From a virus (taxonomy: Duplodnaviria > Caudoviricetes): a stretch of DNA of 42,634 bases. Numbering within the stretch: the stretch's first letter is position 1; each line of letters begins with the position of its first letter. The notes under the pieces were generated by a model. That model had not been told where the DNA came from. It saw only the letters and a program-made list of their open reading frames with translations, and did not search any database. Below, piece by piece: positions 19,953 to 36,979 of the stretch. A program made the translations under genes and the position numbers. The stretch is from positions 1-42,634 of the IMG/VR virus record IMGVR_UViG_3300034945_000004. One strand, 5' to 3'.

Positions 19953-20026
19953 GGCAGGCTAGTAGAACGGCTCTACGCCGGGCTCATAACCCGGAGAAGA
20001 TGGTTCGACTCCATCGCTTGCAACCA
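19953..20026 (+). tRNA. tRNA-Met(CAT), initiator-like
   Basis: Acceptor GGCAGGC/GCTTGCA (1x72 mismatch), D stem GTAG/CTAC, CCGGG-CTCATAA-CCCGG, GATGG-TTCGACT-CCATC, A73, encoded CCA. Confidence 0.9.
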
Positions 20027-20097
20027 ACCTTGGCGCGCATGTATCCCTTGACGCCAAGTTACGGTTTGCAATCGATTTCAACGGGACCGTAAGGGCG

Positions 20098-20122
20098 AAA
20101 AAAAGCCGCCTGGGTGGGCGGC
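20098..20122 (-). terminator. intrinsic terminator of the reverse-strand module
   Basis: GCCGCC-CACCCA-GGCGGC + T7 on minus strand. Confidence 0.75.
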
Positions 20123-20138
20123 GCTATAATGTTGAAAA

Positions 20139-20206
20139 TGGAGTGCCGGGGAATCGAGCCCCGCGCCGGTGTCTTAGGAGGACCAGGCGGCTTACCTGCG
20201 CACCCC
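20139..20206 (-). ncRNA. tRNA-like RNA resembling the tmRNA tRNA-like domain
   Basis: Acceptor GGGGTGC/GCACTCC (G3-U70) + A; stemless 10-nt D-loop; CGCC-T-GGT/ACC-GGCG helix; T-arm CGGGG-CTCGATT-CCCCG; no CCA. Confidence 0.6.
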
Positions 20207-20218
20207 AAGGTTAGACGG

Positions 20219-20386
20219 TTAGATCGTGCGCTTTACGGTCGGCTCGATCTTCACCGGGAATCGGAAGGCCTTCTTGCCGTAGTTCTTGGCGAAGATGGTC
20301 CAGCCGGTCCGTGGGTTGGTGATGGAAGCCCGGAAGATGTACATCCATCCTTCGGGCAGCGGTATGTCCAGTGACAGTTGCTTTAT
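20219..20386 (-). CDS. small basic protein (55 aa), probable AUA start
   Basis: AAGGAGGTGA + 5 nt + in-frame ATA; KQLSLDIPLPEGWMYIFRASITNPRTGWTIFAKNYGKKAFRFPV. Confidence 0.65.
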   Translation of the reverse strand: MKQLSLDIPLPEGWMYIFRASITNPRTGWTIFAKNYGKKAFRFPVKIEPTVKRTI

Positions 20387-20446
20387 TTGCCTCACCTCCT
20401 TTCGGGGTGGTGATGTGAATAGGTTCCCTGCGAGGGGTGCCACTCC

Positions 20447-20497
20447 AGCCGGTGTTGAGCGTTTCCTGACAGGGGCGCGACTCAACACCGGCTTTTT
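20447..20497. terminator. 13-bp hairpin: plus-strand terminator and/or 5' leader of the reverse module
   Basis: AGCCGGTGTTGAG/CTCAACACCGGCT followed by TTTT on plus strand. Confidence 0.6.
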
Positions 20498-20685
20498 CAA
20501 TTATATAAGATGGATAACTAAACCCTGGGTGTAGTTTCCGAGCGGTCTATAAACTGCCCGGAATACTCAATCCAATTGAGTAAATTTACGCGGTGTGTTG
20601 AGTAAACCGAATTCGCCCCCACCGGAACGGCTCCGATAACCTCTTAACTAACGGGGAGCAGGCCGAGCGCGGGGCGGACCTACAA

Positions 20686-32509: not shown

Positions 32510-34003
32510 TTGGTGGAGCAAGCGGGCGCAAGGGTGTACGCGCAGGTAACAAGGCCGGTGGACGAGCAGGAACTGGCCAAGTGGTATCAGGAACACGGTC
32601 TCACTCCGGACAAAGACGGAATGTTTGCAGAGATGCCCTACGGGGCGGCTCCGGTGACAAGGGACGATATTCTGAAGCAGGTTGCGGAGAACGCGCTACG
32701 GCGTGATGTCCCCAACCTTCACCCGAGGGAATACACACCGAAGATCATGGTCTATGTAGGCGGTGGGCCAACGATCCGGCATTTCCTTGAGGACATAAAA
32801 GCTAAGTGTGAGGATGATAAATACGACGTTTACACCTCCAACCAGACGTGCAGGTTTCTCCTTGCTAAAGGCATCAAGCCCAATTTCCACCTCATTCTTG
32901 ATCCGACCGAGAAGAAGGTGAAGGACTTGGATTATCAGGAGGACGTTCCCCTGATTCTCGGGCTTCAGTGCCACCCTAAACTCTTTGAGCGGGCGAAGGA
33001 AAAGGGCGTTCAGGTTCACAAGTTTCTCGCAGCTTCTATTACGGGCGAGAGCGGGAAGTCGGACAAGGACGCAGCTCAAGCCGCGATGACCCGAGAAGAC
33101 CCCATGCTGATGGGCATAGGCGGGGGGTCGATGTGCGGGACGAGGATGATTTACTACGCCGTCGCAATGGGATACAGGCGGCTTGAGTATTACGGCATGG
33201 ATGGCTCGGTGGAGATGAAGGACGGTGGGGTAGTTAATTGCTACGCCTACACCAAGCCCCGGGGCGAAAACATCCTTGAGACCGAAACCGGGAACGGCAG
33301 GAAGTTCTATACCACCATGTCTCTTGCGAGGCAGGGGGAAGAACTTGTAACCCTGCTCGACCTGATGCCCGGTCTGGGCGTTGAAATTTACGGTGATTCC
33401 CTGATGGCGAATCAGTTGGAGATTTACCGGGATCTGAGGAAGGGCGGGAACTACTGCATCACGCCGGCATACATGGCGATGCAGCAGCAGATGCACACGG
33501 ACCACGGGCAGAAGTACGGGAGTACGGGAAGCAAGCACGCCCCGAGAGTCTTCATGGGTGCGGCGCAGATCGTGAGGAAGTACGGGAAGTGCCGGGTGCT
33601 GGATTACGGGGCGGGTAAGGGCGTTTTGACCAGGGCGATTCTGGAAGCCTTCCCCGAAGTCTCGGGAATCACGTACCACGAATACGACCCCGGCATTCCG
33701 GGTCTGGACGCTCCTCCCGGCCCTGCTGAACTGGTGTTCTGCGGGGACGTGATGGAACACGTCGAGCCTGAATGTGTTGATACGGTCCTGAGACACATCC
33801 ACGACCTGACTGGGAAGATTGCGATATTCGTGATCTCGACCAGGGCGGCGGGTAAGACTCTACCGGATGGAAGAAACGCCCACATCAGCCTGCACGGGCC
33901 GGATTGGTGGCGGTCTTACCTGAAGAAGTATTTTGTGCTGGCAGAGAACTACTTTGATCCCGTCAATCAGGAATTGCTTGCGGTGTGCGCTCATTTCCCA
34001 TGA
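32510..34003 (+). CDS. Maf/DUF115 (MptE-like) putative glycosyltransferase fused to class I SAM methyltransferase
   Basis: VGGGPTI...N....L...GIKP......DP...GGGSMCGTR....AMGYRRLEYYGMDGS; C-terminal VLDYGAGKG, YDPG, DVMEHVEP, LPDGRNAHISL. Confidence 0.75.
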   Translation: MVEQAGARVYAQVTRPVDEQELAKWYQEHGLTPDKDGMFAEMPYGAAPVTRDDILKQVAENALRRDVPNLHPREYTPKIMVYVGGGPTIRHFLEDIKAKCEDDKYDVYTSNQTCRFLLAKGIKPNFHLILDPTEKKVKDLDYQEDVPLILGLQCHPKLFERAKEKGVQVHKFLAASITGESGKSDKDAAQAAMTREDPMLMGIGGGSMCGTRMIYYAVAMGYRRLEYYGMDGSVEMKDGGVVNCYAYTKPRGENILETETGNGRKFYTTMSLARQGEELVTLLDLMPGLGVEIYGDSLMANQLEIYRDLRKGGNYCITPAYMAMQQQMHTDHGQKYGSTGSKHAPRVFMGAAQIVRKYGKCRVLDYGAGKGVLTRAILEAFPEVSGITYHEYDPGIPGLDAPPGPAELVFCGDVMEHVEPECVDTVLRHIHDLTGKIAIFVISTRAAGKTLPDGRNAHISLHGPDWWRSYLKKYFVLAENYFDPVNQELLAVCAHFP

Positions 34004-34662
34004 GGGCAATCGCGTTTGCGTATTCGGAGTGCATCCCGAGGCTTGCCCCTATCTACAGGGGGATTGCCGAGGATTTGGTGAAGAACGTCAACGAGGTCAT
34101 GCCGGGAGTCCCGGTCTTTCACCTGACGGACGAAAAGACGGAGCCGGTAGCGGGAGCGGAAGCGGTGGTGGTACCGATGGACGCGCCGCTGATGACCTGG
34201 AGACTTAAAGCGCATAGGGCGGGGATGGATTTGGCAAGCGAAGTCCTCTTTACCGAGCCTGACGTGCGGTTCAAGTCGGAAGTACTTCATGTGTTCGATG
34301 AGGATTTTGATGTTGCGGTAACGGACAGGGAAGTTGATTCCGATTGGGAGTTGAACGGCGAGACGGTAAGACTCTCGAAGGTTGCCCACTACACGCTCGG
34401 CACGACGTTCTCCAGGTCAAAGATGTTTTGGGACGACTGCGTAACCAGTTGTGAGGTTTTGGGCAAGAGGGAGCAGAACTGGCTTGGGGATATGTTGGCC
34501 CTTGCAGGAGTGATTGGGACGGGGCTTTACAAGGTGAAGGTTCTGCCCGGCCCCATCTACAACCACGTCCCCTGTGATCGTGAAGACTCGTGCGAGTGCA
34601 AGGTTCTGCACTTCAAGGGAATGCGCAAGGAATGGCTGTTTCCGGGGTTGGTGGAAGCATGA
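34000..34662 (+). CDS. GT-A fold glycosyltransferase-like protein
   Basis: HLTD, VLFTEPDV (DxD position), FDVAVTDR, W.GD..AL, LPGPIYN, VLHFKG.RK. Confidence 0.7.
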   Translation: MRAIAFAYSECIPRLAPIYRGIAEDLVKNVNEVMPGVPVFHLTDEKTEPVAGAEAVVVPMDAPLMTWRLKAHRAGMDLASEVLFTEPDVRFKSEVLHVFDEDFDVAVTDREVDSDWELNGETVRLSKVAHYTLGTTFSRSKMFWDDCVTSCEVLGKREQNWLGDMLALAGVIGTGLYKVKVLPGPIYNHVPCDREDSCECKVLHFKGMRKEWLFPGLVEA

Positions 34663-35288
34663 AGAAGGTCAACGGAGGGATATTTCTCCCTGACGACGAA
34701 ACCGACCAGATCATGCTCTATGCGGGGATTCAGTACCAGAAGAACAAACTTCAAGCCGCCCTTAGATACGTCAAGAACGCGAGGCTCGCGGTTGACGTAG
34801 GGGCGCACTGTGGGATCTGGAGCATCGGACTCGGCCAATACTTTGACCGCGTTGAGTGCTTTGAACCCCTGCAAAGGCACATTGAGTGCTGGAAGAAAAA
34901 CGCGGGCTGGAAGCAAACGGTAAAACTCCACGAAGTGGCTCTAGGAGATATGCCCGGAACTTGTGGAATGACCGAAGTAGAAGGGCAGTCGGGAAAGAGT
35001 CATGTCAGCCCCAGAGGATTCGGGACCACGCCTGTTTCTACTCTTGATGAGTTCGGCTACACGGACCTTGATTTCCTGAAGGTGGATGTAGAGGGCTTTG
35101 AGTTGTTCGTCCTGAAGGGCGGGGAGGAAACGCTTAAAGCCTGTAAGCCTGTGATTATCGTTGAGCAGAAACCCGGCACCGCCAGCAAGTACGGAGTTGG
35201 CGAGACTGAAGCCGTGAAGTATCTCCAAAGCCTCGGGGCCGAACTGCAAGAGCAGATTACCGGCGACTACATCATGGCGTGGGAATGA
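34659..35288 (+). CDS. FkbM-family methyltransferase
   Basis: AVDVGAHCGIWS, FEP, VALGD, LDFLKVDVEGFELFVLKG...KPVIIVE. Confidence 0.92.
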   Translation: MKKVNGGIFLPDDETDQIMLYAGIQYQKNKLQAALRYVKNARLAVDVGAHCGIWSIGLGQYFDRVECFEPLQRHIECWKKNAGWKQTVKLHEVALGDMPGTCGMTEVEGQSGKSHVSPRGFGTTPVSTLDEFGYTDLDFLKVDVEGFELFVLKGGEETLKACKPVIIVEQKPGTASKYGVGETEAVKYLQSLGAELQEQITGDYIMAWE

Positions 35289-36979
35289 CCTGGAGCCTTG
35301 AGAACTCACAAGGAAACGAAACAGCAAAAGTAAGGTGGGAGTTGGTCCCCTATATGCGGGGGAAGTGTCTGGACTTGGGTTGTGGTCCCTCCAAAGCCTT
35401 CCCCCACTTCATCGGGATTGACTCAGGCAAAGACACGGAGTTATTCGGAATCCAGATGCGGCCCGATGTCAGGGCTGACATAACGGACCTGAGTATCTAC
35501 GCGACCGGAGCGATTGACCTAGTTTTCTCCAGCCATGCTCTGGAACACATACCCGACTGGAAGGCTGCTCTAAAGGAGTGGTGGCGGGTTGTGAAGGTTG
35601 GGGGTCATCTAGCCCTTTATCTCCCTCACGCTGACTTCTACCCCCGCTGTTCTGGCCGGGATGAGTGGAAGGCGTGGATCAAGGCAAACGCGCACAAGCA
35701 CCTGATGGTTGACAGCGCGATTGAGGAATACGCCGAGATTAGAAGGGCGAAGGGCGAGACAAGGGTGGGGGCGATTTACGAAGGAACTCCCTACGCCAAT
35801 CAGGACCACGACCACGATTTCTACCCGCAGGACATTATCAGCGAGTTGGACGGCTTCGACCTCGTTGTACGGGACGAGAGAAACGAAGGCGATGAATACA
35901 GTTTTTTGCTCATCTTTCAAAAGCTGGAAAGCGGAATCAAGGAAAGCTGGAAGGACAAGCCCACAAAGACCGCCGCAGTCGTTAGGTACGGAGCCATCGG
36001 GGACAACATACAGGCAAGTTCCGTTCTCCCGTGGCTGAAGGAGCAGGGCTATCACGTTACGTTCTACTGCCAGTCTGGGCAAGGGTATGAGGCAATCAAG
36101 CACGACCCCCATGTAGACCGATACGTGATTCAAGAGAAGGATGCGGTTCCTCCGCAGTTTCTTCTCCAGTTTTGGGACTACACGAAAAAGAAGTACGACA
36201 AATGGATCAACCTGTGCGAGTCGGTTGAAGGCTCTTTGCTAGCGATCCCCGGAAGAACTACGTGGGAGTGGCCTAACGAAGTAAGGTCAAAGATGCTGGA
36301 CCGTAACTACATGGAGTTTATCCATGAGTTAGCCGAAGTCCCTCCACCGTACAGGCCGAAGTTTTACTCCACGGAGCCTGAGCGGGAGTGGGCGCGAAAG
36401 ACTAAAGCAAGGATGGGTAAGCGAGTCGTCCTTTGGTCCCTGGCTGGTTCTTCGGGACACAAGGTATGGCCGCACTTGGATGCAGCGATAGCCGGGATCA
36501 TGTTGTCTTACCCGGATGTTCATGTGGTTCTGGTGGGGGATCAGTCCTGCCAGATCCTCGAAATGGGTTGGGAAAAAGAGCAACGGGTACATCGTCAGTC
36601 GGGCAAGTGGTCAATCCGCGAGTCGATGGCGTTTGCCGAAGTTGCCGATTTGATTATTGGGACGGAAACCGGACTCCTGAATGCTGCGGGGTCGATGGAC
36701 GTTCCGAAGATTGTGTGTCTGTCGCATTCCTCCAAGGAGATGCTGACAAAGCATTGGGTGAAAACCATTGCCTTGCAGCAGCCCCAAGGCGAGGGGTGTC
36801 CTAAAAGTCCTTGCAGACAGTTGCACGGGTCTAACGGGACGGACACATGGATGGACTGCCCGAAGCATGAGGAAACCGGGACTTCTCTTTGTCAATTCCA
36901 CATAAGCCCGCCGCAGATGTGGGCGGCGATCACTTGCGTTCTAGGGGTTCCTATGCAGATTCAAAAGAGGGCTAAGTGA
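35285..36979 (+). CDS. class I SAM methyltransferase fused to GT9 (ADP-heptosyltransferase-like) glycosyltransferase
   Basis: LDLGCG, FSSHALEH, EWWRVVKVGG; RYGAIGDNIQ, DPHVD, KVWP, ADLIIGTETGLLNAAGSMDVP, C-terminal Cys cluster. ATGA start at 35285. Confidence 0.88.
   Translation: MTWSLENSQGNETAKVRWELVPYMRGKCLDLGCGPSKAFPHFIGIDSGKDTELFGIQMRPDVRADITDLSIYATGAIDLVFSSHALEHIPDWKAALKEWWRVVKVGGHLALYLPHADFYPRCSGRDEWKAWIKANAHKHLMVDSAIEEYAEIRRAKGETRVGAIYEGTPYANQDHDHDFYPQDIISELDGFDLVVRDERNEGDEYSFLLIFQKLESGIKESWKDKPTKTAAVVRYGAIGDNIQASSVLPWLKEQGYHVTFYCQSGQGYEAIKHDPHVDRYVIQEKDAVPPQFLLQFWDYTKKKYDKWINLCESVEGSLLAIPGRTTWEWPNEVRSKMLDRNYMEFIHELAEVPPPYRPKFYSTEPEREWARKTKARMGKRVVLWSLAGSSGHKVWPHLDAAIAGIMLSYPDVHVVLVGDQSCQILEMGWEKEQRVHRQSGKWSIRESMAFAEVADLIIGTETGLLNAAGSMDVPKIVCLSHSSKEMLTKHWVKTIALQQPQGEGCPKSPCRQLHGSNGTDTWMDCPKHEETGTSLCQFHISPPQMWAAITCVLGVPMQIQKRAK

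Follow-up and report, generated by a model that had tools for sequence, protein, structure and literature searches.

A compact tRNA-like RNA gene with alanine identity bases in a soil phage belongs to a widespread family on mobile DNA

The window, meaning the whole stretch of DNA analysed here (42,634 nt), is the linear virus record IMGVR_UViG_3300034945_000004 in full (positions 1–42,634), which is estimated to be 57% complete. It derives from a soil phage of temperate type that carries genes for an integrase, Erf, a replication O-like protein, NinB, a Q-like protein, terminase, portal and capsid proteins. Three successive methyltransferase-like genes lie within the virion gene region (nt 32510–36979). 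A canonical tRNA-Met(CAT) gene (nt 19953–20026, plus strand) provides context, and between it and some small leftward ORFs lies the minus-strand module described here.

Every feature that an earlier note, made from the sequence alone, had listed for this module was recovered in place. Read along the minus strand, the module begins with a TATAAT (nt 20500–20505) that has no −35 match and received no call in the promoter scan; it is not conserved, and sits at the junction where similarity to the relative L202 stops (nt 20502). A leader hairpin of 13 contiguous base pairs (nt 20447–20493) is kept in the relatives L202, L203, L108 and L192, and a T run after it on the plus strand makes it terminator-like in that direction. 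It is followed by a leader 13-mer (nt 20434–20446) and by a hairpin (nt 20393–20409) that contains the Shine–Dalgarno (SD) sequence AGGAGG (nt 20395–20400), and then by a 55-aa ORF (nt 20386–20219) whose ATA start lies 8 nt behind the SD. Beyond the ORF are a 68-nt compact tRNA-like RNA gene (nt 20139–20206) and an intrinsic terminator-like hairpin with a T run (nt 20098–20122, hairpin at nt 20105–20122), which is absent from L202. On the plus strand, a TATAAT (nt 20125–20130) just past the 3′ end of the element is a possible antisense promoter, also without a −35 match, and a TACAAT occurs at a similar spot in a contig of run X13. A motif of about 25 nt (nt 20035–20061, minus strand) recurs behind the RNA in all four close cassettes (L202, L203, L091 and L108), though not at a constant distance.

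The 68-nt element is predicted to form a 7-bp alanine-type acceptor (G1-C72, G2-C71, G3.U70 and A73, with no encoded CCA), a mini D hairpin of 2 bp with the D-loop GG (nt 20190–20199), a bulged arm with an anticodon-type loop, and a T arm with a 5-bp stem. The T loop (nt 20152–20158) has C at position 54, as do the closest relatives L027, L060, L091 and L192. In established tRNA numbering, C32-U33-CCU-A37-A38 is the anticodon-loop form for AGG, and the 7-nt loop of the window (CU-CCU-AA, nt 20174–20180) is, in the modelled fold, of exactly this form and would read AGG (Arg). The whole module folds better than shuffled sequences (z −3.67). Taken by itself, the element gains nothing over its shuffles (z −0.77), and the case that it is real is a comparative one.

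Relatives were collected with structural patterns. A first pattern, with the alanine acceptor ends, the loop and the T loop fixed, returned six viral loci, three of them D-reduced like the window; with the loop freed there were 67 viral loci (54 distinct), from which 24 were chosen by eye as belonging to the class of the window and the remainder left out. A similar pattern run on half of the GTDB collection gave at least 120 loci (115 distinct; about 240 estimated for the whole), all of which were kept. The working set comprises 141 distinct sequences including L202 and L203, or 142 with L011. Members come from phages and from Proteobacteria, Acidobacteria, Actinobacteria, Patescibacteria, Planctomycetes, Bacteroidetes, Chloroflexi and other taxa, and L084, L107, L120 and L122 are from cultured strains. 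A length of 67–69 nt was found in 100 of the 120 GTDB loci listed although the pattern permitted 61–75 nt, CCA is encoded in 50 of 141 members, and each of 10 genomes gave one strong match to the family model (R1), which scores the window element at 71.2 bits by construction.

Existing resources largely pass this family over. The window element had no match in Rfam up to E 10, tmRNA and C4 families included, and scans of 12 and of 20 relatives found no dedicated Rfam family. Neither ARAGORN nor the Rfam tRNA model called the window element, i.e., it is not a canonical cloverleaf tRNA; among relatives ARAGORN called 12 of 104 and Rfam tRNA one of 20. Comparison of the element with annotated phages and plasmids (blastn) gave partial matches only, and the two inspected were an ordinary tRNA-Ala and an unrelated stretch. 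No description of the compact fold was found in the open-access literature. The family to which the 68-nt element belongs, made up of compact tRNA-like genes carried by mobile DNA, is widespread and uncatalogued.

Pairing is conserved among the homologous loci. An ungapped alignment of 29 members of 68 nt showed 89.7% paired cells and a covariation of 0.616, a value not reached in any of 500 shuffles; these members had been pre-called as having the loop at a distance of 10 nt, a selection that favours the inner helix. Slid controls of the same alignment were 41–56% paired, and the outer arm helix was the weakest (64.7% paired). In the larger set, acceptor pairs 5–7, which the search patterns left free, were paired in 124, 123 and 134 of 141 members, and the free T-stem pairs in 132, 140 and 141. 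In 125 of 139 parsed members, base 8 and the base that follows the D-loop G form a Watson-Crick pair, where shuffles averaged 76 and never exceeded 90; because this pair covaries, the D region has a 2-bp stem and is not the stemless D-loop of the earlier description. The window and L202 elements differ at three positions, all in the internal loop, and the stems and anticodon loop are unchanged. Domain lengths are known to compensate for one another in odd mitochondrial tRNAs; by this rule, the two D pairs and about ten layers of the arm would together span as much as the D and anticodon domain does in a normal tRNA.

When the loop was called from pairing geometry only, 90 of 141 members had a 7-nt loop 10 nt ahead of the T stem, and the 141 showed a pyrimidine at position 32 in 124, U33 in 106 and A38 in 106, while positions 34–36 were free. 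Position 37 was A in 82, C in 33, G in 15 and U in 11 of the 141. A call that also used the loop letters gave 39 different triplets among 142 members, of which 11 are alanine anticodons, 18 are stop-reading and 113 are others; the triplet register is ambiguous for the 48 of 142 with a pyrimidine at position 37, a feature not seen in working tRNAs. The variability of the triplet position speaks against taking the apical CCUCCU of the window as an anti-SD, as had been suggested, since these letters sit in the anticodon-type loop. Clean stop-reading loops, with CUA (L127, L150, L164, L166 and L195) or UCA (L095, L142 and L168), are candidate natural amber and opal suppressors. Actinobacterial members of 71–72 nt have alanine anticodons (L113, L118, L143, L151, L049 and L199), and the first five of these lie inside tRNA arrays, after tRNA-Trp. 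Besides this family and the TLD-only class described below, a third group of 71–75 nt (L018, L019, L020, L022, L024, L048, L050 and L075) has a long hairpin with short closing loops, and a bulged acceptor.

The alanine identity bases proposed for the tRNA-like RNA, G3-U70 and A73, are indeed present in the window element. In the family at large G3.U70 was imposed by the main search patterns, viral and GTDB alike. A first acceptor-free scan returned mostly ordinary tRNAs, with 100 of 102 distinct matches failing the architecture filter; the two that passed both have G3.U70 and were already known. In an acceptor-free scan with 106 distinct parsed matches, 12 were judged to share the compact architecture, and because seven of these have G3.U70 (five known, two new with C4-G69) and five do not, the pair is enriched but not universal. 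The five lacking it (L331, L398, L414, L359 and L418) possibly have other identities. The anticodon plays no part in recognition by alanyl-tRNA synthetase, which leaves the triplet free to vary. Arginine identity would depend on A20 and C3-G70 besides C35 and U36 (PMC9976931); in the window, A20 and C3-G70 are missing, with U after the D-loop GG and G3.U70 in place of C3-G70.

The relatives place the window module in a larger context. Locus L202 is 98% identical to the window over nt 20135–20502, and near copies of the cassette occur in contigs of runs X2, X3 and X13; run X20 covers the tRNA-Met only. Upstream of the point equivalent to nt 20502, relatives carry a gene of 230–270 aa, then a minigene of the form SD-ATG-AGR-stop, then a hairpin. 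The product of the upstream gene has DUF5343 in L108 and L203, and that of L108 matches the defence candidate PDC-M34A (E 2e-7). As judged from these arrangements, the complete cassette consists of a wHTH/DUF5343-like gene, an SD-AUG-AGR minigene with stem-loop, the leader hairpin, the peptide gene and the RNA, and the window copy is truncated, the upstream gene and minigene having been lost and the TATAAT standing at the break. The module reported earlier as self-contained is therefore present, but as the downstream part of a larger cassette.

Minigenes of the SD-ATG-AGR-short-stop form were found upstream of eight of 142 members, as against one in the opposite-strand control and none in the downstream control; within the flanks examined, none was found in the window or in 134 of the 142. 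Each of the eight precedes a predicted hairpin. They accompany four of the six confident CCU members, and the other four go with non-CCU loops; a doubtful seventh CCU call (L145) has no minigene. Two consecutive AGR codons occur in L091/L108, L192, L060, L185 and L158, and one in L203, L011 and L202, the codon of L202 being AGA, which CCU could not read. A codon–anticodon match at codon 2 was weak (four observed against 1.0 expected, p 0.015, in a test that counts related sequences apart and is one of eight variants tried, uncorrected), and no family-wide match at the ends of upstream ORFs was significant (p 0.30–0.46). SD-led short ORFs starting MRW lie directly before the UAU-type members L115, L172, L055 and L092, with an ATA codon at or next to the ORF end in the first three and not in L092.

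The sequences of these relatives combine four features of the CreT RNA toxin, namely an SD, AUG with rare arginine codons, a stop and a stem-loop; CreT is described with an SD, AUG, AGG/AGA codons, stop and stem-loop, and extra tRNA-Arg(CCU) cured its AGG toxicity (PMC8501985). CreT is repressed by the CRISPR Cascade with CreA, whereas here the candidate antidote is the tRNA-like RNA, and the window itself is without a minigene.

Mobile-element genes are recurrent neighbours. Of the 104 loci with long flanks, 15 have an IS1595 transposase gene nearby in the flank, against a background of 1–10 IS1595-type genes per 3–8.5 Mb in five genomes checked, four of which had been chosen for having one. 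No IS1595 transposase is present in the window, which is a linear record estimated at 57% completeness. A looser form of the 25-nt motif was found at seven of 15 IS1595 loci and 12 of 88 others, and the motif is probably, to judge by its distribution, a mobile-element end.

From the fold and its fixed arm length, the bases for alanine identity, the consensus of the anticodon loop and the genes nearby, we favour the reading that the element is an alanine-charged missense tRNA that decodes its triplet, likely as the antidote to a tRNA-sequestering minigene, and put its probability at roughly 0.45. By this account the processing would consist of RNase P excising the 68-nt RNA and of CCA addition; the RNA would be charged with alanine, and the ribosome would use it to read AGG as alanine. 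A CreT-like minigene would drain the host's rare arginine tRNA, the tRNA-like RNA would be the antidote, and its part in the CCU lineage would be to release ribosomes stalled on the AGG minigene. A tRNA without a D arm is accepted by the ribosome and EF-Tu of E. coli, with PNPase as a limit (PMC11551756), and allo-tRNAs that combine G3:U70 with a foreign anticodon act as suppressors in that species and lie near toxin–antitoxin genes (PMC5389517; PMC7609411). Against this, an abundant group, allo-tRNA(UAU), was inactive in translation (Mukai et al. 2017, PMC5389517). In long transcripts, the native acceptor stem had a predicted probability of 0.00–0.03 in five of six loci, the window included, which counts against a missense tRNA unless tertiary contacts or co-transcriptional folding, both ignored by the model, decide the fold. 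AGG is the commonest arginine codon of the phage (103 of 323 Arg codons in the 14 genes counted; one of 17 in the capsid gene), so strong reading of AGG as alanine would harm it, and the window copy may therefore be idle or a decoy.

Of the known systems, allo-tRNAs are the closest by analogy, and the window RNA would work most like one. Their identity is set by the acceptor (Ser, or Ala by G3:U70), and with diverse foreign anticodons they give missense or nonsense suppression (PMC5389517, PMC7609411). Shared features are the uncoupling of acceptor identity from diverse anticodons (here 39 triplets, 11 of 142 being alanine, with identity judged from bases only) and the transposon or toxin–antitoxin neighbours (here IS1595 in 15 of 104 and a minigene in 8 of 142). 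Allo-tRNAs are however defined by an 8/4 or 9/3 acceptor branch and form a cloverleaf, whereas the window RNA fails the branch rule and its family has a 7/5 branch and a length of 67–70 nt, lacks a variable arm, and joins a D hairpin of only 2 bp to a long, bulged anticodon arm. Adaptor-like RNAs without a normal D arm are also known in the form of mitochondrial D-armless tRNA-Ser and the engineered mini HisT (PMC11551756); the window family differs in keeping the D-loop GG and a standard T loop, and in that amino acid and anticodon are uncoupled.

A possible alternative, about which we are distinctly doubtful, is that the RNA does not decode and is a decoy soaking up host anticodon nucleases or tRNA-modifying toxins, its loop varying to match the tRNA under attack. 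The loop diversity, the pyrimidine at position 37 in a third of members (48 of 142), the placement on phages and beside IS1595 transposases, and the PDC-M34A match upstream in L108 would all suit such a role, and the heavy AGG use by the phage fits protection of tRNA-Arg(CCU). A decoy would leave unexplained the kept G3.U70 and A73, the stop-reading loops and the alanine-anticodon members in tRNA arrays.

The reading of the earlier note, a switch in which pairing between the leader 13-mer and the acceptor strands would control whether the peptide is translated, in the manner of P1 C4 or P4 CI, is unlikely. The complementarity to both acceptor strands is real in the window and an exact 13-mer is improbable by chance (an expectation of about 1e-5 per 300 nt, worked out post hoc). 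The predicted probability that the leader pairs with the 3′ acceptor strand is 0.96 in the window (acceptor stem 0.00) and 0.65 in L202, the SD is mostly paired (mean predicted probability of being unpaired 0.33), GGAGTGGC is kept in four of six leaders, and peptide and RNA are linked in four other distinct cassettes. As a conserved antisense switch, however, it did not hold up: the leader pairing has P 0.00–0.06 in L203, L108, L192 (0.06) and L060, only the first half of the 13-mer is conserved among relatives, L203 no longer has the half complementary to the 5′ strand, and acceptor changes occur without compensatory change in the leader. The leader motif occurs without the peptide in L192 and L060, and the peptide without an obvious element, by eye, in L001–L008. 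P1 C4 and P4 CI are reportedly phage-borne, cloverleaf-like antisense RNAs complementary to leader sequence, and share these traits with the window RNA, in which, by difference, the complementarity runs via the acceptor stem rather than the loops, without being conserved; neither icd nor an antirepressor was identified as a target, and neither the window RNA nor the 12 and 20 relatives scanned had a C4-type match in Rfam (up to E 10 for the window). On the predicted pairings, the 13-mer may tune RNA maturation in the window lineage, and is not what the family conserves.

We consider it quite unlikely that the RNA is a tmRNA mimic consisting of the tRNA-like domain (TLD) only, as in mycobacteriophage DS6A and in plastid forms of about 65 bp (PMC4131195, PMC11915505), which would bind SmpB and inhibit trans-translation. 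The likeness is considerable: both are short, phage-borne, with an alanine acceptor and T arm, a reduced D region and no tag frame. Sub-threshold matches to the tmRNA model occurred in three of 12 loci and one of 20 relatives (L101) exceeded the gathering threshold, but ordinary tRNA-sized matches reach 42.9 bits on the same model. The window RNA fails two defining features of the tmRNA-like domain, the stemless D loop and the absent anticodon stem-loop; it has a covarying mini D stem and an anticodon arm with a 7-nt loop at fixed distance, without the TCGA D-loop and the xAC linker (GAC), and the tmRNA-like reading offered earlier was accordingly dropped. Both the TCGA D-loop and an xAC/xAT linker are lacking in 103 of 115 distinct GTDB matches. 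In the tmRNA, SmpB stands in for the anticodon and D stems (PMC3968760), which makes its titration by this RNA unlikely. True TLD-only RNAs were present in the same viral scan: 18 of 54 distinct matches have the TCGA D-loop and xAC linker together and are read as a separate, DS6A-type class. This class (61–75 nt) includes L021, L025, L030, L034, L036, L047, L051, L054, L062, L069, L071 and L077, and its 18 RNAs far outnumber the single phage case, DS6A, in the available parts of PMC4131195 and PMC11915505.

RNase P needs the acceptor and T arm of its substrate. In many loci the element lies directly behind ORFs or minigenes, as would suit a t-element, a signal for RNase P cutting in cis by which the message upstream would be trimmed or made less stable. 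Such a signal is nevertheless improbable here: G3.U70 and a conserved anticodon loop at fixed distance would both be superfluous to it, and there are members in tRNA arrays or with promoter-like sites of their own. That the element is what integration left of a tRNA or tmRNA, now decayed, is very improbable and, for the family, the att-derived tmRNA remnant raised in the earlier note is ruled out by covariation. The neighbouring tRNA-Met, the truncated cassette, C54 and the lack of CCA would fit decay, and the window copy itself may be idle, but both ends of the RNA are present with compensatory changes across phyla, the L202 differences avoid all stems and the loop, and a full tmRNA was found elsewhere in three of three non-alphaproteobacterial hosts checked. 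Two alphaproteobacterial hosts gave no tmRNA match over the cut-off; alphaproteobacterial tmRNA is permuted.

The missense-tRNA reading can be extended to a broader proposal, which we advance as speculative: bacteria and phages may carry a class of non-cloverleaf tRNAs with an alanine chassis and a plug-in anticodon for sense or stop codons, distributed through prophages and elements of the IS1595 type, which would recode chosen codons as alanine and serve as antitoxins to minigene toxins, an all-RNA toxin–antitoxin pair in the ribosomal A site. All known bacterial tRNAs are described as cloverleaves, with natural armless tRNAs only in mitochondria, in a 2024 paper (PMC11551756). If these RNAs decode, the bacterial cloverleaf rule falls, mobile elements have a hidden means to mistranslate or read through chosen codons, and a ready 68-nt chassis exists for suppressor design. 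Should they prove to be decoys, they would still add a new family to the conflict over tRNAs between phage and host. Standard tRNA finders miss most members.

The 55-aa peptide belongs to an uncharacterised small-protein family with 1240 homologs (760 at the 50% cluster level). The ATA start of the window is ATG in L203 and L091. A single-sequence protein search found only a near-identical protein, Pfam, PHROGs (phrog_4533, E 0.013) and PADLOC returned no usable family, and the ESM Atlas gave only unnamed clusters below 0.9. The structure model (pLDDT 83) is a small beta fold with one match at Z 2.7 among 48,161 chains, too low a score to be informative. The proposed linkage of peptide and RNA was borne out once homologs were collected, the peptide lying directly upstream of the RNA in four other distinct cassettes (L202, L203, L091/L108 and, distantly, L114); a peptide homolog was found beside none of the 67 viral loci and beside three of the 120 GTDB loci listed, 40 of these 120 having short flanks. 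An N-terminal extension (QLSLDI, QLSLDL, QIPLDL or QLSFNF; nt 20360–20386 in the window, and in L091, L203 and L007), present in three of the best 120 peptide homologs, presumably resembles a sliding-clamp binding motif. The peptide also follows a winged-helix-looking gene in a Bordetella phage (L007:1688-2314) and a Zymomonas plasmid (L008:2015-2314), with no tRNA-like element visible by eye. Firmicutes-type homologs (L001, L004, L005 and L006) come with a −10 box and a terminator on the opposite strand, which hint at an antisense RNA, and the end of the gene before them (upstream of 1501; 679 in L004) looks like what we take to be an ImmA/IrrE peptidase. A second small ORF, ending HRRSTPN, follows the peptide in L001, L004 and L005.
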